Notes: generated from the sequence alone by a model not told the origin. Shown: positions 5,855 through 61,551, counted from the stretch's first letter. The stretch: DNA of 64,000 nt from Neodothiora populina (GCF_041146345.1 NW_027191417.1:124001-188000), one strand, 5' to 3'. Numbers and translations: made by a program.

Positions 5855-6888
5855 GTTTGGGGTACTTTTGCGTGCCGTCTATCCGCCTAAACCCTGTCGT
5901 AGTTCTCGCGCTTCACTGCTTTCTAACCGTCAGAGAGAAAAAGCCAAATCTCCAGTATGCCGAAGTCGGCCACGTGATCGTTATTGGACTGGACACCGCG
6001 AATGTCGACAATATCTTCTGCTCAGCGGAGATCTCTCCAAGTCGCCAGGTATGGAATCGAGACTGTATGTCGTATCCGATGTGGTCGTGTGCCTATAGTA
6101 TATCGGACTGTATACAGTCAATATACGGAAATAAGGCTTATCGCCTGCCTGCCACGTGCTTGTCAGGACGAGGCCGTTGCTTTACGACCAACTTTACGAG
6201 GTGGAATGGCAAGAGGCGCATACCTTATGTAGATTATGACGATTGGTCTCCGCCAATTCTGTACCTGTCGTGAGACGTCTTGAATGAAGAAATTGCAAAG
6301 ATACAACTCGACCAACTCGGTAGGAAAAGAAGGCAGGAATCAACATGTTCCAGCCAAGGACAATCGTCGTCGTAATATGCCTCCTCATCAGCCAGATATC
6401 CCGACTTGGCGGGCACTACAGATCCGTCTTGGCAAAATACGCCCGTTGACACAGTGACGGGCGAACATGCCCGAGCTGCCGACTTTCAAGGGACCAACCA
6501 TACTTGTAGCACGTTAAGGTATCCTATCTCGTCCACAAAGACCTCCTACAGCACGGCAATGAGTACCCGTAGACAGAGGAGCAAGCGATGCATATATCTT
6601 GACAGATCCCTGTTACGCCCTTCTCATCCTTATTATTGGGCTAGCTTGTACACAAGTTTTCCTTGAACTTCTTTCTACACGTGCTGTGATTTATGCCCTT
6701 CTGTCCAATCACCGTCCACCATTCTGCACGCCTCTCGGCCAGTCGTATATCAGGAGGCTTTCTTCGTTCCGAATGCAATATATAAGTATATCATGCATCA
6801 TGTGGTGCAGTACCTCGTCCTGTCCGCCGCATTTTTTTCTGTTTTCCTCATTTCATTCATAAGCTTGCGAGCCGGCCTTCTTGTAGCC

Positions 6889-35689: not shown

Positions 35690-37289
<1,600 letters not shown>

Positions 37290-42038: not shown

Positions 42039-43425
42039 ATGGCGTCGGCCAACCAAGACGCTCTCCTGCTCTTTCGCGCCTGCATCGCGTCCAAGACACC
42101 CCCGATCCCTACCACCTCATCAGATCCCAGCTCCACCGCCGATTACGCCGAACTCCCTGCTGCGACACACGTTCTCTTCAATTCACATTCGTCAACAGAC
42201 GGACCTTCGCATATCGCCCTGCCCTGCTCGACACCGACGCGCTTCATCTCGACCAGCACAACCAGCAGCAGCAAGGCGGAAGAGACAAGCGACAACAGCA
42301 CAGCATCAGCAGGGGGACTAGATCTGCTCAGTGTCTTCTGGTGTTGGCAGAACAAGGACAAGGGTGTTGGTGAATACATCGCCGCCACCCAGGCACTCAA
42401 CTCGGCACGGCAAGAAGCAACCCTGTCTCCCGTGACGAATCTCGTCTTCGCCGAGAAGCTCGACCTGGTGAATTGGCTCGCCGGCGATGTCGGTGAGGCT
42501 GAGAGCGAGTTCATCCGTCCGCTGGGTGACACCGAGGAGACACGGCGATTGGCTGGCGAGGCAGCTGAGTTGGCCAAGGGTGGAGAGGCTGGCGATGTCC
42601 CCATGGGTGGCGTGGAAAGAGACGGCGGTGACGGAGACAAGGCCGACAGGATGAGGGTGATTTATCGACAGGAGCGAATACTGGGAGACCGGAATACTGT
42701 CCTGCGGGGGATCAAGCAGACGGTTAGTTCTTGTAGAGGAGAAGAGGACGAGCAATCCGAAACTAACTGGACTCTAGGACTTCTCCCACGTGCGGAAATA
42801 CACTGCTCTGTTCCTGTCACGTAGCGGCAGCAAGTCAGCTCCCGCCCCAGCACTGACTCCCGCCCTGCGCGCACCTCCTTCATCCAAGGGCTCCTCTCGC
42901 AAACCAGAACCCATCATCCTTTTATCGCCCTCTGCATCTTCGCTATTGCGCCTCTCGAACATCAAATCTTTCCTCGTTGACGGCCTCTACACTCCTCCTT
43001 CGTCAGCTGCGACAGTAACAAACATGGCGCAGATATCCCGTGTTCTGCCGTCGATCGACCCTCTACGACCCACCCGTTTTATTCTTGTCGAGAGCCCCGA
43101 GAACTTCAAGCCCGATTACTGGAATCGCGTCGTCGCCGTCTTCACCACTGGCCAGTCCTGGCAGTTCAAGGGCTACAAATGGAGCCACCCGGCCGAACTC
43201 TTCAATCGCGTGCTGGGTGTCTATGTCGGCTGGAGAAACGAGGGCATTCCTGATGTCATCAGGGGCTGGGGAAGAGGCGTCAAGGCTGTTGGTGTCGAGT
43301 ATTGGCGCGAGGGACAAGGCGCTGGCGAGCGGGATGTCGGCATGAGATGGAGAGACAGAGAGGTAGTCGAGGAGATCTGGAGTGCGATTGAGGCCAGCAT
43401 GAGAGCCAAGGGATTCGGAAAGTAA
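42039..43425 (+). CDS. CDC73: Paf1 complex subunit Cdc73; exons 42039-42722 and 42778-43425
   Basis: LVFAEKLDLVNWL, DRNTVLRGIKQT|DFS, PIILLSPSASSLL, DYWNRVVAVFTTGQSWQFKGYKW and RWRDREVVE motifs; GTTAGT..ACTAAC..TAG intron. Confidence 0.93.
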
Positions 43426-44333: not shown

Positions 44334-45704
44334 TTACTGTCTCCAAGCCACGCAATCGACCCTACTATCCCACAAGTCAAGCGCCATGTTTCTATCCATA
44401 CTCTGCCCCGCCTCCTTCCCACGGTCCAACTTCGCCGGCAACCTCCAAACAGTGATCCCAAACCCACTCATCTTGAGACTAGTGACGAGCGGACCGAGCG
44501 TCAATCTCTTGACCACAAACCCTCTTTTCTCCAAGTCCCGAACAGCCAGTTCCGCGAAGCGCGCCAGGACTTCGTCGGAGGTGCTGCCTAGTGAATTCAA
44601 GACGAGCACGACCTGGTTGTCTTTCTCTTCAGCTGCCGAGTTCTCGACCCCAGAAAAGCTGGAGGCGCTGAACGGGATGAAAGCTCTGTCTGCGTCAGAT
44701 GTGTCGACTAGCAGATCGATCATTTGATGAGTGAGATCTTGTGGCGAGGGAATCGGGTGGATTTGACGCAGGCCTGGCTCGCCGTGGGCGCCCATGCCGA
44801 GTTCAATCGTTGCTGGAGGCAGGGATTGGAGATCTGTCAGAGTGGCGTTGGGGAGGGCAACGCTGTTTTTTGTCATTGTTAGTAGAAAGCAGATTTGATG
44901 TGAAGCAGGAAAAGAAGGCAGCCTCACCGATCAAAAGCAACACCCACAGTGCCCACATTCGCCGCAACCACCTCCATGACGCTCGCAACCCTCTCGAGCG
45001 ACTCGCCCCTCTCCGCGAGCGCACAAGCACATTTCAACGCAATCAAATGCCCACTCAAACCTCTCCTGCCCACTTTCCCCCCTTTCTTCCGTCCGACAGC
45101 CACGTCGTCCCCAACAGGCACAAACCTTACATTATACCCGGCCGCCTGGGCTCTCGTGATGGCGAGTCCCGCATTGAGTATATCACCCGTATAATTCCCA
45201 CAAACGACCAACGTGCCCCTCGCTTCCCCTCCGCTTCCCTCATCGCCACCCCTCGGCTGACACAGCTTGATAGCCTTGAATATCTGCGCCGCGGTAGGCG
45301 ACGCGAATACGTTTCCCGACACATACGCGGATAGGAAATTCGACCCCACGAAGCCGCCGAACATGGGCTCGTGGCCGCCGCCGCTGAAGCCGATTGTGGT
45401 CACGTGGTTTGAGGACCGGAAGCTTTGCAGGTCGCTGCGGTAGAGGATTTTGTGGTGCGGGATGTAGGAGAGGTTCGGATGCAGGTGGGTTAGGCCTGTT
45501 AGGGCGTCGGATATTGCGTCTGGGGGATCTCAGTTCTACGGATCTGCGACGGGGGAAGACTCGGGGGATTTTGTGTTGTTGACCGAAGAGGATGGGGTGC
45601 TTGTGGAAGAAGAATGCTTACGCACCGGCCGGATCATTAATGAAATGGAACGTCTCCTTTGCAGTGGGAGAAATCACTTGTCGTGTCTGCACTGCTGCTG
45701 CCAT
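44334..45704 (-). CDS. Dihydroxyacetone-kinase-family protein, DhaK (Dak1) domain only; exons 45704-45626, 45519-44928, 44862-44334
   Basis: HFINDP, FSGGGHEPMFGGFVG, GNVFASPT, NYTGDILN, VGDDVAV, VGRRGLSG, ELGMGAHGEPG, NSLGST and TSLKMSGFGIT motifs. Stops at ...DCVAWRQ* with no DhaL domain downstream. Confidence 0.9.
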
Positions 45705-46489
45705 GGCCTCACGGATTGGATGTAGCAAATCCTTCGTGGCCTAATAAGACTAAGAGTCAAGAACCACCCTCAAGTACGTCTTGTGTACCACTCAGATCAT
45801 GGAGCACTCAGGTTACAGAGAGTAAGAAGAGCACCAGGCTTGTGATAGCTCGGATTGTCCAAGGAAAAAGTATATACAGGATGACAACAACAAAAAAGTG
45901 CAAGACCCATGGATGGGCTCAAAGTAAAGTACTACATCTCTCAACCGAGATCGAAGCTCTTCAGCCCGGATATCCAAATGAAGTACCTCAACCTCCCACA
46001 CCCGACACACAGAATAATCCCACTATTCGTTGCACAAGATACAGAACAGGAAGTAAGCAAGCAGGCTGCTCGGGAATGGACGTCACGCCTCGGATTACCG
46101 TATTAGGCAAACCCCCGACGAACGTCTCCAGATAGTGAGTGCGGGGCTGAGGATTTGGAGATCCGCCCCCACCATGATTACCGGGAAGGAAAACTACTTT
46201 ACGATACAAGTCATTAAAAGGTTCTTCGGATCGGGTGGACGTCTAGCGATGATAAGGACCGGGTTCTTTGTGGAATATATCTTGACACTCCCGTTGTCGC
46301 ATCTTTGAGCGCTGTGTGTTTGTCGTCTTGTAATTGGATATAGAAAGACAGAAAGAATATATCCTCATTCGCATCCCCGCACGCTTCACGTACTGTATAC
46401 TCCCCCCCCCCCACATCATATTACACCGGCTTCCGACTACTATCATTTCGACATATCACTCAGCAGACGAACTTAGAGGGAAAGGAAAA

Positions 46490-48247
46490 ATGGCAATAGT
46501 AGTAGAGCAAACAATCCCGTTCGAACCCTCTGATCTGGATATCACGAATCCCACTCGCTGGTCGGATCTTCTCCCTCTGCTACGACCATCACTCAGACCC
46601 GTCGCTTCGAAAGACCAGACGGCGACGATACTCGTCGATCAATCTTTCGCTGCTGCGAGTGATCATGATGTTCGAGTGGCGACTGTGGTGAGACCCGGGA
46701 ATTTCCCGAGCGGGTTATTGGAGAGAACGAGACATGCGTGTGCTTTTGCTGTCGGTCAGGTATCGGCGGATGATGTGGTGAGTGCGATGAAAGAAATAGG
46801 GATGGGTTTCGGTCAGGGTCTTGTGGTTGTGCGCAGGGGAGTGCAGAGGAAGGTCGAGATCGAGAGCCATGATGTGCTGAAAGTCGAAGTCGACGACGAT
46901 TTGCTGTTTGATCATGTCATGCAAGTTCTGGGGAGTGCGACTGAGTCGACTAGGTAAGTCTTCTTATCTCTCGATATAGATTCAGATATGCCAATGAAGG
47001 GTGTGTTCGAGTGTAACAAGGATCGGCTCAACCAGGAAAAGGATTAGGGCGCTAACGGTGTTCGTACAGATCCAACTTGCAGCGAACGACAGAAATGCTG
47101 CGACTACTGGTAAGGTCGTCTGTGGCTGTGCAATCCACATTTCAGACACAAAAGTCTCGGGGAAATCTATCCATCTCGAGTGTAGGTGGTCCTGCGGAGA
47201 CCTATGCGCAAGCTAAGTATGCCGTGGAACAGAGCTTGGGTGGTCTGTTGCAGTCTTTTGCTGCACAGGACGGCGTCACCCATTCTGTGCATTATGTGGA
47301 TGTGAATGGTCTTTCCAGACTCGAAAACTATATCATTGGTATGGAGATTGGGCAATTCTTTGGTGAGTTTTGCGTGTCCTTGTTTCGGCTGGACAACTAT
47401 CGTTCCGTTGTTTTTATGCATATTCCATAAGAAAACTGCAGTAGACATGGGAGAATGCTGACTGTTAGCAGAATCTCACGAAATTCCCTATGCACTTTCA
47501 ACTTCAATGGTCCTACAGCATGATGACATGGCCCGCGGCTTTGCGATCTCGATATGTCCAGTGCCGGTACAGTATATCGAACCTCAGTCCAGACCAACAA
47601 ATCCCCTGCTGGACGAGCAAGCAAATGAAGAAGGCTTGACTAGGGTTGACTCGAGATACATTAGGTTCTCTGACGTCCAAGTCCGAAATTGTATAGAATC
47701 CGGATGCGATGCTGTGATAGCGGCAGAATCAACAATCACTCGATACGACGAAATCGTCGGCGACGGCGATTGCGGATATACATTACGAGACGGAGCAAAG
47801 CAAGTCCTCAAGTTCATCGGCAACCAAAACCTCGGTGATCTACCTCAGATTGTTGGCGAATTAGTCCATGACCTGGAGGTCAATATGGGTGGAACGTCTG
47901 GTGCCTTGTATTGCATTTTCTTGACTGCCTTGTCTGCCTCATTGGCTTCAAGTGAATCAGTCAGGGATGCGGTTACAGTCGCCCTCGAACAGTTGATGAA
48001 ATATACAAGGGCAAGGGAAGGAGATCGGACAATGATGGATTGTTTGATCCCGTTTGCGCGTACTTTTGCGAGGACTGGCGATGCAAACAAAGCCTTAGAG
48101 GAGGCGCGTCGCGGTGTGGATACCACGAAAAACTTGGAGGCGAAGCTTGGGCGAAGCACATATCTTGACGAGAGCGCCATAAAGGGTATTCCTGACCCGG
48201 GTGCATATGGCTTGCTCGTGTTGCTTGAGGGGATGTGTAAGGCTTGA
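46490..48247 (+). CDS. Dihydroxyacetone-kinase-family protein: degenerate DhaK-like N-terminus plus intact DhaL (Dak2) domain; exons 46490-46953, 47070-47362, 47469-48247
   Basis: DhaL motifs ITRYDEIVGDGDCGYTL, MGGTSGALY, AREGDRTMMDCL, AKLGRSTY and PDPGA. Two canonical introns join it in frame to an upstream region with DhaK remnants (VNGLSRLENYIIG, MARGFAISI). Confidence 0.85.
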
Positions 48248-50796: not shown

Positions 50797-51693
50797 ATGG
50801 CGCCGATATCGTGGAAACCAAAGTTCGAGGCGTCGCCACCAAAAGTGAAGCATTGCATGTTATCGTATCCAGCACCTTCTGTACTGCTGGTGCGGCTTAA
50901 CAGGCCAAAAGAACTCAACTGTATCAACAGTGAGGGTCATGCTGAGCTCGATGCTGTCTGGGAATGGCTTGACCATGAGCCTGCCTTGAGTGTGGGCATT
51001 ATCACTGGTACAGGCCGAGCATTTTGCGCAGGCGCAGATCTAAAAGGTACGCATTCTCAATGAGATTCACGGCCGAGTCATCAATACTGAAATACAATAG
51101 AATGGAACAAATCTACGTCAGAGGGCAAGCAACGACCTCAAGCCGAGTCCGGTTTTGGAGGGCTTTCTCGACGAGGTGGTCGCAAGCCCGTCATCGCTGC
51201 AGTCAACGGGATCTGTTTTGGAGGCGGATGTGAAATGATTGTCAACTGTGATCTCGTAACAGCTTCGTCAAAGGCAACATTCGCACTGCCAGAGGTCAAG
51301 CGAGGTGTCGTAGCCATCGCTGGCGCACTCCCTCGTATTGTCCGTACTATAGGAAAGCCACGAGCTATGGAGATGGCACTAACAGGACGAACCGTACCAG
51401 CTGCCGAAGCAGAGAGATGGGGCCTGATCAACAAAGTCGTTGGCGATGCCGAAGGCGAGGTTGTGGATGCAGCGGTGGAATACGCAAGGATGATCGCGGA
51501 GAACAGTCCGGATTCTGTCATCGTGAGTCGCGAAGGCGTGAAACTTGGTTGGGAGGGCCTCAGCGCCGAGGAGGGGACCAAAGAATTGATGCAGAAATGG
51601 TATCCAGGCCTCGCGAATGGTGAGAATATCAAGGAGGGTTTGAAAGCATTTGTAGAGAAGAGGAAGCCAAAGTGGATAGCTTCGAAATTGTAA
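50797..51693 (+). CDS. Peroxisomal enoyl-CoA hydratase/isomerase (crotonase family); exons 50797-51046 and 51101-51693
   Basis: RLNRPKELN, AFCAGADLK|E, PVIAAVNGICFGGGCE and FALPEVKRG motifs; C-terminal PTS1 SKL. Confidence 0.92.
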
Positions 51694-51895
51694 TTATAAT
51701 GTTGCCGTCGCATTCTGGCGGCTTTTCTCCTCGAACTTATTTCGGAAGTTATAGCCGTGATATGGACAAATCTGGTGTAGAAACGTGCGCACGGCCATTC
51801 CAAAGTAAAGTCCACGCCTGCCTGCTACCAACACAATGACAGACCAGATATTGAGATATTCGCAAAGCTTTCACTCTACCAGCACCAACAAAGAC

Positions 51896-52416
51896 ATGTC
51901 GAATATCACGATAGCCTCAGTGCCTCGCATCACGCGGGAGAAGCTTTCGACACTTGTCCGTAGTAAATCTCCCTCACTTGCAGTCATCGACGTCCGCGAC
52001 TCTGACTATATCGGTGGCCACATTGCGGGTTGTCAGAATGTGCCCGTCCATACTCATGATTACAAGATGCCTGAGTTGGTGAGAACGCTGAAGGACAAGG
52101 AAACTGTGGTATTTCACTGTGCGTTGAGCCAGCAAAGAGGACCGACTTCAGCGCTCCGCTATCTTCGTGAGCGAGAAAGACAGGTTGGCGGCAAGGTTGA
52201 GAAGGCGAATGAAGGTGCCGGGGATGCACCCGAAGTCAAAGGACAGACTGTGTATATCCTTGAGGGTGGATTCGTGAAATGGCAAGAACTGTATGATCCC
52301 CTCATAAGCCCCATTATTTACTCTGGTCATGCACTTACATTCTGTACTTTAGGTATGGAGAAGACAAGGATCTCACCGAAGACTACCAGAAAGACATTTG
52401 GGAATTTGGATACTGA
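51896..52416 (+). CDS. Cdc25-like rhodanese phosphatase / arsenate reductase (Ibp1/Ych1 family); exons 51896-52290 and 52353-52416
   Basis: AVIDVRDSDYIGGHI, VFHCALSQQRGP (HCX5R) and YILEGGFVKWQEL|YGEDKDLTEDY. Confidence 0.9.
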
Positions 52417-54463
52417 AGATTGTGCATCAATTTGCTTCTTCGGCGATTCATGATCCACTTCGATGAATTGATAGGACTTATGCCGACCTTGATAAATGCA
52501 TCACGTCTCATCATCAGCACCGATTGACCAAGATCGGTCGCAACAATCGACCTTCAACCTCACTCACCTCACCAGAGTGCGCTCCGATGTGCCTCTTCTC
52601 TTACCTGAGACGATCTTGAAGTTGGACGCTTGACCTTGACGTGCTGAAGTGACATACATCACGAACATTGACTCTATGTGTTTCAGATTTAGGAGAGCAT
52701 CGAGACTCCACAGGCACGCACGGGAGCTTGAGTCAAAGATTAAGTGGAAAAATAGGCTTCAGAGCGTCAAGACATACACGATCGTCTCTTCGTACCACGC
52801 AATTTACATAGTATGTGACCCCTTTTGGATATCAGACGCCCTTTTATGCACCTCACTGGAATTCGGGATTAATTATCACGCATGAGATGTGGAAAATAGG
52901 ATATCGATTCTTCAAAGAGTGAATTCATGTGTACTGTAGAGATGACGGCGCAAATTGTGCGGTCCAAGTTTAAATTGCGCTAAGACGAAAGGGGGTCCGG
53001 GTGGTCAATGTCGGAGATACTCTTATTTTTTTCTGCTTTCACCAACTTGCCGACCTTGATATCTCACCTTTCCACAACACCTTAATAGAGACTCGAGAAT
53101 CGTCTCGTGATTACGAAACATTATATGAGACGCTTTCATACTCATGAGATGGACTCGGTCTGATTAGCGTGTCGTGCCGCAGTGTATACAATCGCACTGT
53201 AGCCTTGTAGCTGCCATGGAACTCGACTCGAGATGTGTACACACATCGCAAGATACAGTTGACCAGGTCATACTATACGTACGGAGCTCCACGCTACTCT
53301 CTTTCCCCTATCTTTCCTCAGGAACACAATTGTCACGCCCGGCTCCTCCTATTTCCCCATGAGAGTCAGGGCCCTCATCATTGTTCCAAGAACAAGTATT
53401 TTTTTGCTTGCACGTTTAATTGGCTTGCTACGTCTTTCTGCGTGGCGTAGGAAGTCTCATTGCGTGTTGACATCTCCCCATCCATATTGCATACTTTATT
53501 CCACTTTTTGATCTTTTGTTACTCCGGACTTGGTTTTTCACGCAAAGGTTGGCCTGTCTCTGCTGTTTTAAGTCTCTCATAGTTCCACAATCAAGCGTAT
53601 TCTCTTGAATCTATGTTGTCTTTGTGCTCTGGAAACCCGAAGCTCCGTTTCCCAATGGCTTTTACTGTCTCCGTATTTACAAGCTCTTCCAGACTTTGTT
53701 CTACTCTTTGATTCGGATAATGCCCCATATCGGCGCCTTACCCAAGATATCGTGATAGTTCAGATGTGGTCAAAGACCTGGTTCTGCCCATGTCTCTTGA
53801 CTCCTGGAGTCGAGTCTGACAGCAGATCCCTCTATCTCACACGGGTTGTTCTCTATAGCTGCGATCGTGCCTCTCTAAGTCGTATGACAACCTTCGGAAT
53901 TGTATCCTTGTGACGAGGACGCAGAAGCCTAGATCAAACATCAAGCAGTTTTAAGCTTAGTAGTCCGTCAATATTAATGTTCACGATATTCGTTGATGTG
54001 AAAAGGAAATCTTAAAAGCTACCTCATTTGATAAGGCAGCAATTATTAGGCATGAATTTGGCTACTAGTGACGCTCCTGGCCATACAAAATGCCCCGCGC
54101 CAAGATTCGGCTGCAGCTGCCTGCATTGTTTTGGGATACCGCTTTCCACCCACCATCATATATGACTCTCTGCAATTACCTCCACCGACCACTTTCACTT
54201 ACCGTGTAGTGCTTGTCTCGCTGGGACACCGAGCTACCCGTTTTCCACTTGGCTCATATAACATAAGACAGACCTGTGAAGCCTTCGCTTTGCTTTCAAA
54301 AAGCATCTTGATTGAATCTAAAAGTGCAGATCAAAGCTTTTTCTTGCGTCTGCTGGTTTATGCCCCACCATTATAACCTTTGTTTTGTAGATTACATCAA
54401 AGCAAAGCAAGGTGATCTGAAAGTGTCCAAGACACTACAAGAGACCCATTCCAACAAGCCGTT

Positions 54464-56890
54464 ATGGCTTACCAGGATCATGCTCCGTACAAGGCTCAGG
54501 TATCTAATGAAGTTTCACTAATGCTCCAGGGTTTGGAAGAACACACCAAAGGCAAAGGTGGCAAAGCTGGCTTCTCGGCAAAGAAAAACACTTTTAACGT
54601 AGCAGGATCAAATGTTGCAGTCGATTCGTGGCGCATGCAAGAATGGGACTACAAGAAAGACGGCCTGCCAACTTACGCCCGAGGTTTGTTCACTACTGTG
54701 AATAGCACAGGCCAGCCCGAGATCGTGACCAGAGGATACGACAAGTTTTTCAACCAGGGTGAAGTGAGCAAGACTCAATGGGCCAACGTGGAGAAGAATA
54801 CGAGGGGACCTTATGAACTCAGTGTCAAGGAGAACGGATGCATCATCTTTATCTCCGGTCTAGAAGACGGTACTCTACTTGTCTGCAGCAAGCACTCTAC
54901 TGGCAAAAGGGAGGATGCGAACATCAGTCATGCCGAGATTGGCGAGAAATGGGTGGAGAAACATCTAGCTACAGTTGGCAAGACGAAAAAGGATCTTGCT
55001 TTCGAGCTACGCCGCATGAATGCTACCGCTGTTGCCGAGTTATGTGACGATGAGTTCGAGGAGCACGTCCTTGCTTACAATCCGGAAACGGCTGGTCTGT
55101 ATCTTCACGGAATCAACCTGAACTTACCGGAATTTGCCACTTATGCTGGCCATCTCGTCGATCGTTTTGCTGCCGAATGGGGCTTCAAGAAGACCATGTA
55201 TGTTGTGGAGAATGACATTATCCAGGTGAAGACGTTCCTCGACAAGGTCGCCGAGACTGGTAGCTATGCAGGTCGAGAGACGGAAGGCTTCGTCATCAGG
55301 TGTCAGTCGCGAGCAAATCCAGAAAGCCCTTGGGAAGATTGGTTCTTCAAGTACAAGTTCGAGGAACCTTACCTTATGTACCGCCAATGGCGAGAGTGTA
55401 CAAAGGCCATCATTGCTGGAAAGCCACCTAAATTCAAGAAGCATAGAAAGATAACAGATGAGTATCTTCACTTTGCACGCAAGCAACTCCTGGACAACCC
55501 GCAGCTCGGCAAAGCATACGCGCAGAACCACGGTATCATCAAGCTGAGGGACGACTTCCTTGCTGCTCGCGGCTTGAAGGGGTCTGATATCATCAGGCAG
55601 GAACTCGAAGGCGGCGAGGTCGGTTCGGACATGGTCGCAGACAACGTCGTTCTGGTGCCGGTCGCAACCCTGGGCTGCGGAAAGACAACACTTGCCATAG
55701 CCTTGAGCAAGCTGTTTGGCTGGGGACACATACAGAACGATAACATTACGAAGAAGCCCAAACCGCTCAACTTCGCGCGAGGAGTGTGCGAAGGCTTGGT
55801 CACGCATCCCGTTATGATCGCAGACAGGAACAATCACCAGCGTCGCGAGCGTAAGCAGATAATGGACGACGTTTCGCAGACCGTCCCAGAAGCCAAGTTC
55901 GTTGCTCTATATTATGTTCACGATCGCTCCAAGTACGACCAGATTCGTGCCGCGACCCGCGCAAGGGTCCTGAGCCGCGGTGACAACCATCAAACTATCC
56001 AAGCAGGCTCAAAGAGCCAGGATGAAATTGTTGGCATCATGGAAGGATTTATGAATCGTTTCGAGCCTGTCAATCCCGAAAGGGAACCCGACGACAACTT
56101 CGATCTTGTTATCGATCTCGATGTTACCTCGTCGTCGCGCGAGAACCTTGAGACTATCGTCGCACGTTTGAACGCGGAATATCCCAGACTATTTGGAGCT
56201 ATGCCTACCGGGGAGGATTTGGATCGCGCGACTGAGGCTGCTTTGAACGACTACAAGCCAGACATCAAGCATGATATCGGTGGTGCCAAGCGGGAGATGA
56301 AGAAACAGCAGAAGCAGGCACAGCAGCAACCAAAAAGCCAGAAACAAGCCAAGCTGGAATATTTTGGTGTCAATCTTTCTGTTGAAAAAGTCAAGAATAT
56401 CCTCGAAGCAGCTTTTCAAAACGCTGATGCTGACACGGCGAGAATGTGGCATCAACTTCAGGGATCGAGAAGAGTGCAGTCGGAGTTTCATGTCACTTTG
56501 ATCCATCGTGTACTCGCTACACAATATGCCGAGTACTGGGATCAGCTTTGCAAGATGCATGCTGATGCGGCCGAGAAAGCAGGTGTTCCTGAACCTGAGA
56601 TCGGCAAGTGCAAGGTGCAATTGGAGCGCCTTGTGTGGGACAACCGACTCATGTGCTTCGTCGTCCGACTCGTCAGCGCAGATGGAGGCATGGAGTGGAA
56701 GAGCGTCAACGACACGGCACATGTGACTGTTGGCACTGCGGATCCCAGCGTCAAGCCAAAAGAGAGCAATGATCTCCTGAAGAAGTGGCTTGAAGTCGGC
56801 AGTGGCCCAGGCACTGGACTTATGGAGACTCAGATCACGGGCCACGTGGAGCTTGATGGTAGCGTCAGGGGTATGCTTCAGAAGCGATAG
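54464..56890 (+). CDS. TRL1: Fungal tRNA ligase Trl1 (ligase, kinase and cyclic phosphodiesterase domains), 808 aa
   Basis: KENGC (motif I), SKHS, EGFVIR, FFKYK, P-loop ATLGCGKTT, DRNNH, and two HVT 2H-phosphoesterase motifs. Confidence 0.96.
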   Translation: MAYQDHAPYKAQVSNEVSLMLQGLEEHTKGKGGKAGFSAKKNTFNVAGSNVAVDSWRMQEWDYKKDGLPTYARGLFTTVNSTGQPEIVTRGYDKFFNQGEVSKTQWANVEKNTRGPYELSVKENGCIIFISGLEDGTLLVCSKHSTGKREDANISHAEIGEKWVEKHLATVGKTKKDLAFELRRMNATAVAELCDDEFEEHVLAYNPETAGLYLHGINLNLPEFATYAGHLVDRFAAEWGFKKTMYVVENDIIQVKTFLDKVAETGSYAGRETEGFVIRCQSRANPESPWEDWFFKYKFEEPYLMYRQWRECTKAIIAGKPPKFKKHRKITDEYLHFARKQLLDNPQLGKAYAQNHGIIKLRDDFLAARGLKGSDIIRQELEGGEVGSDMVADNVVLVPVATLGCGKTTLAIALSKLFGWGHIQNDNITKKPKPLNFARGVCEGLVTHPVMIADRNNHQRRERKQIMDDVSQTVPEAKFVALYYVHDRSKYDQIRAATRARVLSRGDNHQTIQAGSKSQDEIVGIMEGFMNRFEPVNPEREPDDNFDLVIDLDVTSSSRENLETIVARLNAEYPRLFGAMPTGEDLDRATEAALNDYKPDIKHDIGGAKREMKKQQKQAQQQPKSQKQAKLEYFGVNLSVEKVKNILEAAFQNADADTARMWHQLQGSRRVQSEFHVTLIHRVLATQYAEYWDQLCKMHADAAEKAGVPEPEIGKCKVQLERLVWDNRLMCFVVRLVSADGGMEWKSVNDTAHVTVGTADPSVKPKESNDLLKKWLEVGSGPGTGLMETQITGHVELDGSVRGMLQKR

Positions 56891-57992: not shown

Positions 57993-58539
57993 GATATTGT
58001 TACGGATGATAGCCGCCCAGGGGCACTCCGTGATGCCTCATGACCATACCATTGGACAAGAATGTCCTGTCTACTTTGCAGATACTGCCTCGTCGAGTCA
58101 CTGCCGCTTTCAACCACGCTGTACGGCACATAACATCCCCCCTTCATCAGACTATGGAAGGACATTCGACCACCATGATGCACATGCGTCCAGATACAGG
58201 GCATGACATCGCGTCTAGCCTGTTAGATGGCCCCAGTGACACCAAGGAAGAGCGATTACATGGGTGGTGTAGCAGTGGTTAGAAGAAGAAGAAGAAGTGA
58301 TGAGAGAAGTGATATAGATATAGCTTGGCATCAGTGTCTCTTCTGGGGATAGTGCGGGGAAGACAGAGCAACAGCTCCGTCATGGCGATTGCTATTATTT
58401 ATCTATATTATATTTCTATTCCATCATGATCATCATCATGAAATGACAAAGACGTCAGCCGAGGGCTCGATGGCTATGCTTCGGTGACCTCTGATGGCTA
58501 TGCCGCCATTGTTCCGGGTTCATAATACAAATCTATACC

Positions 58540-61500
58540 ATGTTCCTATTTCCCATGCCTATCGCGCCTCACAGCCTCCCGCCAAACCCATCGCTTGTTG
58601 CGATTATACTCATCGTCACGACCCGCCGTGGTCCACGCTTTGTGTTTCATTACCCTGGCATTCCCGAGCCCTCCCAGCAGAGCAACAGCTGGGCTTTTGG
58701 CTCCATCGGCAGCGACAGCGAGTCGAGCGATGACAGCAGCGACGAGGGCACAATCACCTCGGAGCCTGGTGACACCGCGAGTCGAGCCGGCAGCGTGACA
58801 TCGAGAGACGGAACGAGCAGACAAGGGAGTCACAGCGGCAAGACGGGGAAATGGTCGGCCGCCTCGGCGAGCACCAGGAAGACAACACGGACGCTGCGCG
58901 AAGATGGCCCCGACGACGACGAGGATGTCGACGATGACATCGAGGCCTTGGACCTGACCAACACGGATAGCAGAGACGGCAAGAAAGAGAACAATGCCAC
59001 CGAAGACGGCAATGGCGGTGCGGTCAAGGACAGGTTGGCCGACTGGGAGAAGGTGCTCGGCTACCCCACCGAAGGCCTCGAGAAATTGCTCAGTCCGCCT
59101 GATAAGTTCAGGAAAAAGAGATTCGAGGTCAGTCTTGAGGAGCTAGTCTTTCTGGGCTATCCCGTCTTTGCCAAGGAGGATGGGTCGTGGAAGAAGAAGC
59201 AGCACAAACACAGCAAGAAGAAGCGGTGGGAGAGAGAGCATCGTGAAGACCAGGACGATGACGATGCCGTCCCACACGACGACGACACGGACCACAATCT
59301 CACTACAGAAAAGCACCCTTTCGATGATCAGATGAAAAATCATGCATCAGGTCGACCGCAGGACCTGAATATAACCACATCCAGGCTCGAGCGTGTCAGT
59401 AGTCCCGAATTGTCGCCCACCACCACTCCCGATGATGCCAGAAAGCACAGTGACCCAGACAGCCTCAATCCACAATCTGGACTCAACGACTTGTCTCATA
59501 GCTTTGATTCTACAGGTGGCATGAGTGAAGCTGCCTCGGAGGTCAAGAGCATGTCCACCACCTCGGGCAGCCAGAACGGCGACGATGTGAGTATGTTCCA
59601 TGTCGTCTTTGTCATGAACCCTCCCACTCTTGAGTACCACATACGTGTTCAGGAAATGTACGATAATGTCGTCAAGAAGTTTTCCAAGGCACTCAGGTAC
59701 GAGCAGTCACGGTCAGGATGGGTGGAGAAGGAGGCGAGGAAGATCCTCACCCTCAAGAACCAGGCCAAGGAAAACAAAAAACCCACCCCCATGTCTATTC
59801 TGTGGCCCAAGATTATCCAGCAGTCGCCTCTTGCCAAGGCGATCGCGAATATCTACACCAGTATCGCCTCCAACAAGATCGCCCATGTCAGCATCGGCTC
59901 GACCTTTGATGCGTCCATACAGATCCCCCAAGCGATCAGCACCTCATATGTCGCCACGCCCATGGAGCCCCAGTTGCCCGGACTATGGCTGACCACTGCG
60001 TCGATGCTCGAGGACGACGATGGCGTGTCCACTCTGAGCCCACACGCCGCCCTTCTGCTGCTGGAAGACAAGGAAACCATGCTCAAGGAGATCCAGGGCG
60101 AGAGCAAAGAGAGAACCGACCCGCTCATGGAGTTCATTGGGCATCTGAGTCCCACAAAGTCTCTGTCCAAGTTGTCAGCGTCCTTGAGGCTGTCTCTTTC
60201 TGATATGCAGTTTCTCGCGCGTCACTTGATCTATTGGCGGCGTGCGAGAGCGATCCCTCCGCTTCACATCAGAGACACGTATATCGTATCGCCAAATTGC
60301 GACATGAAGAGTTTGTCTCGCGCGACGACGCTGTACGCCCAGCGTTTCCACGCACTGCCGAGCTTGCCCAACATGTTGCAGCTGCTCAGCGGCAAGCCAA
60401 AGCAATACGGCTACCACATCCCAACCAAAGACCACAAGGCTACATACATGGAGATATTGGCCTGGCTCATGAGAGGTGGCTGGGTCACTCAGCTGCGCAC
60501 ATTCGCATGGGTCAAAGTCACCCCTGCAGTCAAAGCAGCTGTTGCAGTGCAGATCCGCAAGGAGGCCGAGAGGGCAAACGCCAGGGCCAGAGCGGTCATG
60601 ACAAGGCCAGACATCACAGGAGCAAAAAGGACCGACATGCTCGGGTCCATCTCGAGCGCATCGCCGAGCGCCCGACGCACCTACAGTGAAGACGACTACA
60701 TCTCGTCCAACTCCACATCACGCAAGTCTTCCAAATCAAAAGGCCAGCCGACGAGTCCTCGTCTAGACGCGATCCTGAGTCCCTCTATTTCCGGCAGTGC
60801 CACTACAGCGATGCGCGTCAGTTCAAACTCCATGGCACGCGATCGCGCCTCGATCTCCGACACGGAGAGTATTTCCAGCGCGCGCACAGCGATCCCACCT
60901 TCGTCCATGTCGAGTCTGCCGATAGCCGTGTCTTCCCCAGCGCTCATCCCACTTCGCCCCAGCCCTCTTCACGCGGTGGATAACATCAACCCCTTCTCAC
61001 CCCCGAACCACAGCAACAACAGCATGCCGAGCACATTCAGCGCCAGCGTCAGCGGCACTCAAAGCAACACCAACACCAACAGCATCAACGAGACCGACTC
61101 GGCATCCGTAGCCTCTGTGCCCATCAGCGCGACAGGCAACGGCATCATCTCGACCGGCCCGGACGGCGGAGCTCCAAACAACCCCCACACCAACCCAGCC
61201 CCAACAGCGGACACAGCGACCGAAGCCGGCGCCGAGACTCAAATCAGCGACACCGCCACAACGACCCTGACCACGCTCCCGAGCACCGACGAGCGCGACT
61301 ACGAAACAACCCTCGTCCTGTCCCCTCACCGCGCCAAGACGCTCGAAAGCAGATGGCTGGCGCACATCGGAGCCAACGTGCTGAAAGACAAAGAGCTGCG
61401 CGAGTCGTGGGCGAGCCTGGTCAAGTATTTCGATGGCAAGAGGGCGATCGAGGAGATTGCGGGCAGGGAGGGGTGGAAGAGGCGCAGGGTCGATGAGTTG

Positions 61501-61551
61501 ATGCAGAGACTGGAGAGGGAGGGCGTGCTGGTTGTTGTTCGGCATTGGTGA
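58540..61551 (+). CDS. NPR3: Nitrogen permease regulator 3 (SEACIT/GATOR1 subunit), 1003 aa
   Basis: LVAIILIV...GPRFVFHYP, KRFEVSLEELVFLGYP, FHVVFVMNP, ALRYEQ, HLIYWRRARAIPPL, VTQLRT and KYFDGKRAIEEI motifs. Confidence 0.93.
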   Translation: MFLFPMPIAPHSLPPNPSLVAIILIVTTRRGPRFVFHYPGIPEPSQQSNSWAFGSIGSDSESSDDSSDEGTITSEPGDTASRAGSVTSRDGTSRQGSHSGKTGKWSAASASTRKTTRTLREDGPDDDEDVDDDIEALDLTNTDSRDGKKENNATEDGNGGAVKDRLADWEKVLGYPTEGLEKLLSPPDKFRKKRFEVSLEELVFLGYPVFAKEDGSWKKKQHKHSKKKRWEREHREDQDDDDAVPHDDDTDHNLTTEKHPFDDQMKNHASGRPQDLNITTSRLERVSSPELSPTTTPDDARKHSDPDSLNPQSGLNDLSHSFDSTGGMSEAASEVKSMSTTSGSQNGDDVSMFHVVFVMNPPTLEYHIRVQEMYDNVVKKFSKALRYEQSRSGWVEKEARKILTLKNQAKENKKPTPMSILWPKIIQQSPLAKAIANIYTSIASNKIAHVSIGSTFDASIQIPQAISTSYVATPMEPQLPGLWLTTASMLEDDDGVSTLSPHAALLLLEDKETMLKEIQGESKERTDPLMEFIGHLSPTKSLSKLSASLRLSLSDMQFLARHLIYWRRARAIPPLHIRDTYIVSPNCDMKSLSRATTLYAQRFHALPSLPNMLQLLSGKPKQYGYHIPTKDHKATYMEILAWLMRGGWVTQLRTFAWVKVTPAVKAAVAVQIRKEAERANARARAVMTRPDITGAKRTDMLGSISSASPSARRTYSEDDYISSNSTSRKSSKSKGQPTSPRLDAILSPSISGSATTAMRVSSNSMARDRASISDTESISSARTAIPPSSMSSLPIAVSSPALIPLRPSPLHAVDNINPFSPPNHSNNSMPSTFSASVSGTQSNTNTNSINETDSASVASVPISATGNGIISTGPDGGAPNNPHTNPAPTADTATEAGAETQISDTATTTLTTLPSTDERDYETTLVLSPHRAKTLESRWLAHIGANVLKDKELRESWASLVKYFDGKRAIEEIAGREGWKRRRVDELMQRLEREGVLVVVRHW

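Follow-up and report, generated by a model that had tools for sequence, protein, structure and literature searches.

How does a kinase of the dihydroxyacetone kinase (DAK) family work when the domain that binds the substrate and the domain that binds the nucleotide appear to be encoded by separate genes? This question is raised by a 64,000-nucleotide stretch of DNA (the window) from the dothideomycete Neodothiora populina (GCF_041146345.1 NW_027191417.1:124001-188000), in which two genes stand head to head. The minus-strand gene encodes a stand-alone K domain (DhaK; Dak1 in Pfam) and is here called K-only; the plus-strand gene encodes an intact L domain (DhaL; Dak2 in Pfam) preceded by a degenerate K domain, and these are here called pseudo-K/L and pseudo-K. 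Eukaryotic DAK and triokinase, according to PMC13663913, are homodimers in which two fused K-L chains form two composite active sites. We found no description of a split or heterodimeric fungal or eukaryotic DAK in open-access full text and bioRxiv (supplements excluded), and the arrangement is apparently new to the literature. We consider it probable that the two proteins are subunits of one ATP-dependent DAK-family kinase that works only as a hetero-oligomer.

Domain content of the two proteins

Splicing of the window DNA at GT-AG sites yielded two proteins, P0007 (K-only) and P0001 (pseudo-K/L), identical at every letter to the deposited sequences of N. populina, which both genes match at 100%. 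P0007 matches Dak1 (PF02733) with an E value of 7.1e-84 over residues 35-370 (profile positions 2-302 of 313); its score of 281.8 bits, against a gathering cut-off of 31.4, places it in the family. It also matches E. coli DhaK (E 1.9e-56). As a first-pass annotation of the window had proposed, the domain is complete and carries three substrate motifs: GGGHEP at residue 73, NYTGD at 135 and GMGAHGEPG at 246. Among 50 K-only orthologues, G.HEP is present in 47, and both N[YF][ST]GD and H[GN]E[PA]G are present in all. We take the GHEP histidine and the NYTGD aspartate to be substrate-site residues and the H(G/N)EPG histidine to be the covalent substrate binder. A substrate-binding histidine is named as His220/His221 in PMC13663913.

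The K-only protein ends where the Dak1 domain ends, at the point where the first-pass annotation had expected a K-L linker to begin, and WRQ is the C-terminal end in 42 of the 50 orthologues. Using two fused DAKs as tblastn queries, we found no Dak1 or Dak2 stretch in the 64-kb window beyond the pair itself. Given this result and the conserved WRQ end, we conclude that no downstream DhaL exon was missed, and we rejected that explanation. The same architecture holds across the K-only family, which makes up the first 93 rows of its homologue list: every row has Dak1 and lacks Dak2. In named species, which span three fungal classes, identity of family members to the query exon is 65-82%, whereas for most fused fungal DAKs it is only about 37-44%.

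The pseudo-K/L protein is the complement of K-only. P0001 matches Dak2 (PF02734) only, with an E value of 5.8e-43 over residues 348-508, and its 147.2 bits, against a cut-off of 27, make it a Dak2 member. DGD.G, GGTSG and GD[RK]T are present in 63 of 63 orthologues and PDPGA in 62; we take these (DGDxG, GGTSG, GD(R/K)T and PDPGA) to be the nucleotide and Mg motifs of Dak2. The L domain is therefore intact, as had been claimed. Upstream of it, P0001 has no Pfam match to Dak1 even at an E value of 10, and among five pseudo-K/L proteins scanned, a sub-threshold Dak1 match (16.7 bits) was found in P0006 only. Each of the motifs G.HEP, N[YF][ST]GD and H[GN]E[PA]G is missing from the first 300 residues of all 63 orthologues; even a bare HEP and a bare TGD each occur there in just one. 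We count this complementary loss, with the substrate motifs kept in K-only and lost in pseudo-K while the L motifs are kept, in favor of a two-subunit enzyme.

The region in front of the L domain had been described as about 290 residues that retain only C-terminal remnants of DhaK. The loss of the motifs and the C-terminal remnant are both real: in a profile comparison, residues 230-510 of pseudo-K/L aligned with positions 272-592 of fused fungal DAKs at a probability of 100, so that recognizable sequence runs from the end of the K domain through the linker and the L domain. The word "only" did not stand, as a whole DhaK fold is predicted. An AlphaFold2 model of P0001, based on the 63 orthologues, has a mean predicted local distance difference test score (pLDDT) of 86.5 and is poor only at residues 1-9 and 297-307. 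In VIA-align comparisons, the best structural match of pseudo-K (residues 15-290) was the DhaK paralogue DhaQ (2iu4_B; Z 18.1, root-mean-square deviation 4.1 Å, 254 residues), with E. coli DhaK close behind (Z 17.3-17.8; 3pnm_A, Z 17.8 over 249 residues). Overall, DhaQ and DhaK matched with Z 17.3-18.1 over 249-260 residues, and FakB/DegV proteins with Z of about 11-12.6. Foldseek ranked the matches in the same order (DhaK 3ct4_A, E 6.8e-9), and an independent ESM Atlas model of pseudo-K gave template modelling scores of 0.67-0.70 to Dak1 clusters. The L domain superposed on E. coli DhaL (3pnl_B) with Z 22.6 and a root-mean-square deviation of 2.2 Å over 192 residues. Because the structural matches extend across residues 15-290, we conclude that pseudo-K is a full, degenerate DhaK domain.

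The predicted complex of the two proteins

The first-pass annotation had suggested that the two chains form a heterodimer that rebuilds one active site, and the modelled complex agrees with this suggestion. A complex prediction for K-only and pseudo-K/L, made without the orthologue alignments of this analysis, scored 0.87 (runs of 0.86, 0.87 and 0.88), and the best of three controls scored 0.00; the pass mark is reached by 51 of 78 solved complexes and by 2 of 108 mismatched pairs. The runs had at least 63% of their contacts in common, with a partner pLDDT of at least 81. In the model, K and pseudo-K form a pseudo-symmetric core through the usual K-K surface: pseudo-K helix 234-250 packs on K helix 28-39, and the pseudo-K N-terminus (15-33) lies on K 316-331, with an expected error of 0.4-0.8 Å for the best residue pairs. 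Two family-specific tails, the N-terminal MAVVVEQTIPF of pseudo-K/L and the C-terminal WRQ of K-only, fall within this modelled interface. The linker (residues 291-311 of pseudo-K/L) crosses and touches the K-only chain, and L residues 384-437 (around GGTSG 392 and GDRT 436) are placed over K residues 74-78 and 137-153 (around GGGHEP 73 and NYTGD 135). DAK homodimers have composite, inter-subunit K/L sites and an intertwined L2-K1-K2-L1 order (PMC13663913); the modelled geometry follows this logic with one half silenced.

These findings suggest a mechanism in which the simplest hetero-oligomer would be a 1:1 heterodimer. K-only would supply the sole substrate site, comprising the histidine that binds the carbonyl substrate covalently and a catalytic His/Asp pair, and pseudo-K/L would supply the ATP/Mg site through its L domain. 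Pseudo-K would have lost its substrate site while keeping the fold and the DhaK pairing surface, and could thus take the place of the second K in the L2-K1-K2-L1 dimer; the linker would then bring L across to cover the K-only partner's active site. The predicted enzyme is asymmetric and has a single composite active site where the usual dimer has two.

The same chemistry could be achieved by a different assembly, K2(pseudo-K/L)2, in which K-only forms a homodimer and two pseudo-K/L chains dock through their L domains only. E. coli DhaK provides a precedent, as it is a dimer that binds two separate DhaL subunits (PMC13663913; the corresponding structure, 3PNL, is among our fold matches), and because K-only keeps a whole Dak1 domain, it may also keep the ability to pair with itself. 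Pseudo-K would then serve regulation, bind a different ligand or aid solubility, roles that could suit the conserved pseudo-K residues D141, H142, K183, H229 and D232, which lie outside the predicted interface. We regard this assembly as rather unlikely, and those roles for pseudo-K as no likelier: the model pairs pseudo-K with K through the usual K-K surface at the low expected error given above, and about half of the conserved pseudo-K positions are within that surface.

Conservation, linkage and the candidate shared promoter

Both families occur in Dothideomycetes, Leotiomycetes and lichen-forming classes. Pseudo-K/L proteins are 41-59% identical across these three classes, and a profile search gave 171 matches at E <= 1e-20; among the best 120 of these 171, which were listed, none has a precomputed Dak1 match. 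Of 47 genus-level labels with K-only, 35 recur among the 120 listed pseudo-K/L matches, and because the other 51 matches are outside that list, the remaining 12 labels are no evidence of absence. Cercospora berteroae has all three types of gene: K-only (CBER1_04795), pseudo-K/L (CBER1_06635) and a fused DAK (CBER1_08590).

The two genes are also linked. The locus tags of K-only and pseudo-K/L, respectively, are consecutive in six named species from three classes: N. populina (AAFC00_004470 and AAFC00_004471), Candelaria pacifica (M1812_006300 and M1812_006299), Mollisiaceae sp. (EG329_001132 and EG329_001131), Oculimacula yallundae (VTL71DRAFT_7039 and VTL71DRAFT_7038), Drepanopeziza brunnea (L3040_001764 and L3040_001763) and Pseudogymnoascus sp. 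(V494_05336 and V494_05337). Among 65 metagenome loci with a K-only relative, 15 have pseudo-K/L directly upstream on the opposite strand, with spacers of 359-659 bp in the 12 that were measured. When judged by their nearest proteins, these head-to-head loci resemble Aureobasidium, Leotiomycetes or Pycnora, and the unlinked loci resemble Mycosphaerellales. Since the genes are adjacent in three classes and apart in Mycosphaerellales-like lineages, the pair is widespread rather than universal; the head-to-head arrangement is probably ancestral.

The intergenic regions contain a common element. TGCGGGG (or its complement CCCCGCA) is present in all 13 intergenic regions of the pair, those of the window and of 12 loci (L006, L008, L010, L011, L032, L036, L042, L043, L050, L058, L060 and L062), usually in two copies of opposite orientation. 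The 13 regions are otherwise dissimilar, with at most 7% of 10-mers in common. TGCGGGG occurs at 23 sites in 5,984 bp of intergenic sequence versus 6 sites in the 90,398 bp that make up the remainder of those loci (3.84 versus 0.07 per kb), and it is the only 7-mer common to all five distant representatives; any such common 7-mer arose in 2 of 500 shuffles. Across the window as a whole the word is not enriched (8 observed versus 6.7 expected). Of 18 loci in which pseudo-K/L is not adjacent, 12 still have TGCGGGG ahead of K-only, about 60-240 bp upstream. This conserved element supports co-regulation of the two genes, which are, or ancestrally were, probably transcribed divergently from a short shared promoter. 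The CreA/Mig1 consensus is SYGGRG (PMC8844935), and the element's core, GCGGGG, matches it. From this fit, glucose repression by a CreA/Mig1-type regulator can reasonably be inferred, and such repression would suit a catabolic enzyme for an alternative carbon source.

Could the two proteins instead act independently? Pseudo-K/L on its own might be a nucleotide-dependent enzyme, for example one that, as the isolated L domain of human TKFC does, acts as an FAD-AMP lyase (FMN cyclase), and K-only might be a ligand-binding or regulatory protein in the manner of the co-activator DhaQ or of TKFC's isolated K domain. [quoted passage not shown] We nevertheless judge independence to be unlikely, and somewhat more so than the alternative assembly, because the two families co-occur, are adjacent across three classes and have a promoter element in common, K-only keeps all catalytic residues rather than just those for ligand binding, no DNA-binding partner is encoded next to the pair in the window, and the complex model speaks against it. 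It is very improbable that a duplicated DAK has left one or both genes behind as decaying remnants that have no function of their own: pseudo-K has indeed lost all substrate motifs, but both reading frames are intact with canonical introns, the intron after pseudo-K/L exon 1 is at the same position in distant loci, and the two families keep the identities given above across long-diverged classes.

Several observations weigh against the proposal that the two proteins form one obligate hetero-oligomeric kinase. When the pseudo-K/L and K-only families were aligned directly, hhalign gave a probability of 0.2%, although the register was topologically sensible. A profile of pseudo-K exon 1, searched against 1.84 billion representatives, returned 55 matches at E <= 0.001. 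The 50 strongest cover most of the profile and, by length and range, belong to the same narrow family, mostly as exon-sized fragments; at the weak end are a few long proteins in which short repeat-like stretches abound; and none, judged by lengths and match ranges, is a typical DhaK/Dak1 protein. Given these weak or null matches, it is the predicted structure that carries the homology of pseudo-K residues 1-229 to DhaK. The complex prediction may have passed because the predictor remembered similar solved complexes (C. freundii DAK, 1UN8/1UN9, and E. coli DhaK-DhaL, 3PNL), in which case the score may reflect likeness to these complexes and not this pair's own affinity. Conservation of the interface is partly independent support, since it is taken from the alignment and not from the model, yet the test (22 of 52 interface positions at least 90% conserved, versus 23 of 238 other pseudo-K positions; Fisher p 1.3e-7) pools buried and exposed positions. 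Finally, linkage is incomplete. In several Mycosphaerellales both genes are on one contig but at a distance of 21-703 tags; Recurvomyces and Friedmanniomyces have them on separate contigs; and among 24 K-only-type metagenome loci with at least 2 kb of upstream sequence, pseudo-K/L is there in 11 and out of reach in 13.

Substrate, genomic context and known systems

The proposed enzyme probably acts on a small ketose or aldose, for example dihydroxyacetone, glyceraldehyde or erythrulose. One hint comes from a divergent relative of the pair, locus L037 (1-11098), whose K-only protein is 47% identical to that of the window. Here the gene order is P450, Zn2Cys6 regulator, fumarylacetoacetase-type, rhaM-like, K-only, LacAB/RpiB-type isomerase, pseudo-K/L, TIM-type isomerase and NAGLU. 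As described in PMC9835291 and PMC5992420, the Yarrowia erythritol cluster contains the DAK-family erythrulose kinase EYK1, the RpiB-type EYL1 and the TIM-type EYL2, and EYK1 and EYL1 are transcribed divergently from a shared 438-bp bidirectional promoter. Because the kinase and both isomerase families of L037 are those of the Yarrowia cluster, erythrulose is favored for the L037 relative. For the main family, this analogy makes erythrulose only a lead: neither the window nor any of the other 64 loci has an RpiB-type or TIM-type gene next to the pair, although such isomerases may be encoded elsewhere in the genome, and the RpiB, TIM, rhaM and fumarylacetoacetase-type proteins of L037 had no tblastn match in the window. 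The earlier suggestion of erythrulose as a substrate has one hint in its favor, the cluster context of L037.

The most specific version of our proposal would be an obligate asymmetric heterodimer with one active site, with pseudo-K kept purely as a dimerization partner, that phosphorylates L-/D-erythrulose rather than dihydroxyacetone as the kinase step of glucose-repressed erythritol/threitol catabolism; we hold this version tentatively, and think it somewhat doubtful. Its placement in black yeasts, rock-inhabiting fungi, plant-associated Leotiomycetes and lichen-forming fungi would be just as tentative. Polyols are major carbon currencies of black yeasts and of rock-inhabiting, plant-associated and lichen-forming fungi.

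The features of the pair are collected in Table 1. The ATG-to-ATG distance that we measured equals the spacer length reported in the first-pass annotation, and all of its sequence claims on the pair held on re-examination. Of the conditions that it had named as refuting, those on the fold, on pairing across genomes, on pseudogene status and on a missed exon all came out in its favor. The introns of K-only are 106 and 65 nt and those of pseudo-K/L are 116 and 109 nt. The first pseudo-K/L intron follows about 155 codons both in the window (46954-47069) and in the distant Leotiomycete-like or lichen-like loci L008, L010, L011, L050 and L058; in several distant loci it is in frame and contains stop codons. 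Comparison of pseudo-K among metagenome loci was confined to exon 1, since in-frame introns carry stops.

Table 1. Features of the K-only and pseudo-K/L gene pair, in window coordinates
Feature	Position	Strand	Basis or content
K-only gene AAFC00_004470 (P0007, 399 residues)	44334..45704	-	spliced translation identical to P0007; stand-alone Dak1/DhaK
K-only exons	45704..45626, 45519..44928, 44862..44334 (last includes stop codon)	-	spliced translation
Shared intergenic region, candidate bidirectional promoter	45705..46489	.	785 bp, ATG to ATG
TGCGGGG element	46140..46146	+	word search in intergenic region
Second TGCGGGG element, opposite orientation	46375..46381	-	word search in intergenic region
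Pseudo-K/L gene AAFC00_004471 (P0001, 510 residues)	46490..48247	+	spliced translation identical to P0001
Pseudo-K/L exons	46490-46953, 47070-47362, 47472-48247 (last includes stop codon)	+	spliced translation
Pseudo-K domain, residues 1-290	46490..47584 (two introns included)	+	predicted degenerate DhaK fold without substrate motifs
K-L linker, about residues 291-315	47585..47659	+	low pLDDT at 297-307 in monomer model
L domain, residues 316-510	47660..48244	+	intact Dak2/DhaL nucleotide-binding domain

A Pfam scan of reading frames identified Cdc73, enoyl-CoA hydratase, rhodanese, tRNA ligase and NPR3 genes as window neighbors of the pair. A Cdc73 C-terminal domain is at 42778-43422 (+), a rhodanese at 51809-52450 (+), a fungal tRNA ligase at 54416-56887 (+), NPR3 at 58495-61548 (+) and a pyridine nucleotide-disulphide oxidoreductase at 35693-36952 (-). 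These are genes of housekeeping type. No metabolic context for the pair emerges from the window, and we rejected its neighbors as clues to function. The enoyl-CoA hydratase gene, at 51091-51690 (+), is about 3 kb downstream of pseudo-K/L. In the Aureobasidium models P0171, P0172 and P0175, pseudo-K/L is fused to enoyl-CoA hydratase domains, probably because neighboring genes were merged, and these fused models indicate that synteny with the window is kept within Dothideales.

Elsewhere, K-only has other companions. A rhaM-like gene (PF05336) is immediately downstream of and convergent with K-only in 17 Mycosphaerellales-type loci (L002, L004, L017-L020, L022, L023, L025-L028, L041 and L046-L049; for example, 6292-6735 on the minus strand of L020), and in the Hortaea werneckii models P0047 and P0048 the PF05336 domain is fused to K-only. 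A gene of beta-hydroxyacid-dehydrogenase type (NAD_binding_2 and NAD_binding_11) follows K-only/rhaM in L020 (7248-8534, +) and L033 (8518-9993, +), where it may be part of a small catabolic cluster.

Database names for the pseudo-K/L family are inconsistent, and include "Dak phosphatase" and "dihydroxyacetone kinase 1/2"; the Neofusicoccum parvum orthologue of pseudo-K/L (P0190) is named "RecF/RecN/SMC domain-containing protein" by its source. Entries in nr labelled Quercus suber (P0062, P0063, P0174 and P0181) represent both families, at 47-81% identity to the Neodothiora proteins, and some are fused to an F-box-like domain; they look like fungal DNA in an oak assembly.

If our proposal is true, the pair would be a natural experiment: a symmetric DAK dimer divided between one subunit with the catalytic K and another with pseudo-K and L. 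The contribution of each domain, and the sufficiency of a single active site, could be examined cleanly in such a system, which would also show how pseudo-enzyme domains persist as scaffolds. The annotation of hundreds of fungal genes, at present called hypothetical protein, Dak phosphatase or dihydroxyacetone kinase 1/2, would be put right. Should erythrulose prove to be the substrate, a step now missing from the polyol catabolism of fungi with ecological importance would be identified. As a short and conserved bidirectional promoter, the intergenic region could itself be a useful part for co-expression.

How does the pair compare with known systems? In the Yarrowia lipolytica erythritol cluster, a DAK-family kinase is likewise divergent from a short bidirectional promoter and accompanied by RpiB and TIM isomerases, much as in L037. 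The cluster differs in that such isomerase genes are not beside the pair in the window or in the examined loci other than L037, and EYK1 is presumably a single DAK-family protein rather than a split pair.

The FakA/FakB system is also a two-protein kinase of the same superfamily. The Dak2-like ATP domain of FakA matches the L domain with Z of about 18, and both FakB/DegV (Z 11-12.6) and the FakA C-terminal domain (Z 10.9) have a fold like that of pseudo-K, so that FakA, too, joins an L-type domain to a K-like domain that is not catalytic. However, FakA has its L domain first, whereas here pseudo-K precedes L; FakB carries a fatty acid substrate, whereas the partner here is a bona fide Dak1 protein; and pseudo-K is clearly closer to DhaK and DhaQ than to DegV.

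DhaQ of Lactococcus lactis (DhaQ/DhaS; 2IU4, 2IU6), the top structural match of pseudo-K, is a DhaK paralogue in non-catalytic use. DhaQ still binds dihydroxyacetone, and its partner DhaS is a DNA-binding regulator of TetR type. In contrast, the substrate motifs are missing from pseudo-K, which shares its chain with an intact L domain, and Pfam scans of 26 long reading frames (29-64 kb of the window) revealed no DNA-binding regulator beside the pair. The idea that the pair is a sensor analogous to DhaQ/DhaS gained no support.

As in the DhaK/DhaL/DhaM kinases of the phosphotransferase system (PTS) type (E. coli, 3PNL; L. lactis, 3CT4/3CR3), the substrate-binding K is separate from the nucleotide-binding L, and the L domain superposes closely on DhaL, as noted above. 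Here, however, L is fused to a pseudo-K, and its sequence is closer to that of ATP-dependent DAKs (191 bits to K. phaffii 26VK versus 57 bits to E. coli DhaL). No DhaM turned up, although no search was aimed at it; fungi, to our knowledge, have no PTS.

The closest relatives are the fused DAKs and triokinases (C. freundii 1UN8/1UN9, K. phaffii 26VK and human TKFC). Both domains are shared, pseudo-K/L keeps the K-linker-L order, and the end of its K domain and its L domain align with these proteins (26vk_A, 191 bits; 1un9_A, 119 bits). In fused DAKs a catalytic K and an L are in one polypeptide, whereas here the catalytic K is on a separate chain: two unlike chains, a K without L and a fused chain in whose K domain GHEP, NYTGD and the HGEPG histidine have been lost, take the place of two identical ones. 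The predicted K-only and pseudo-K/L assembly would thus mirror the intertwined dimer and its inter-subunit K/L sites, with one composite site expected where fused DAKs have two.

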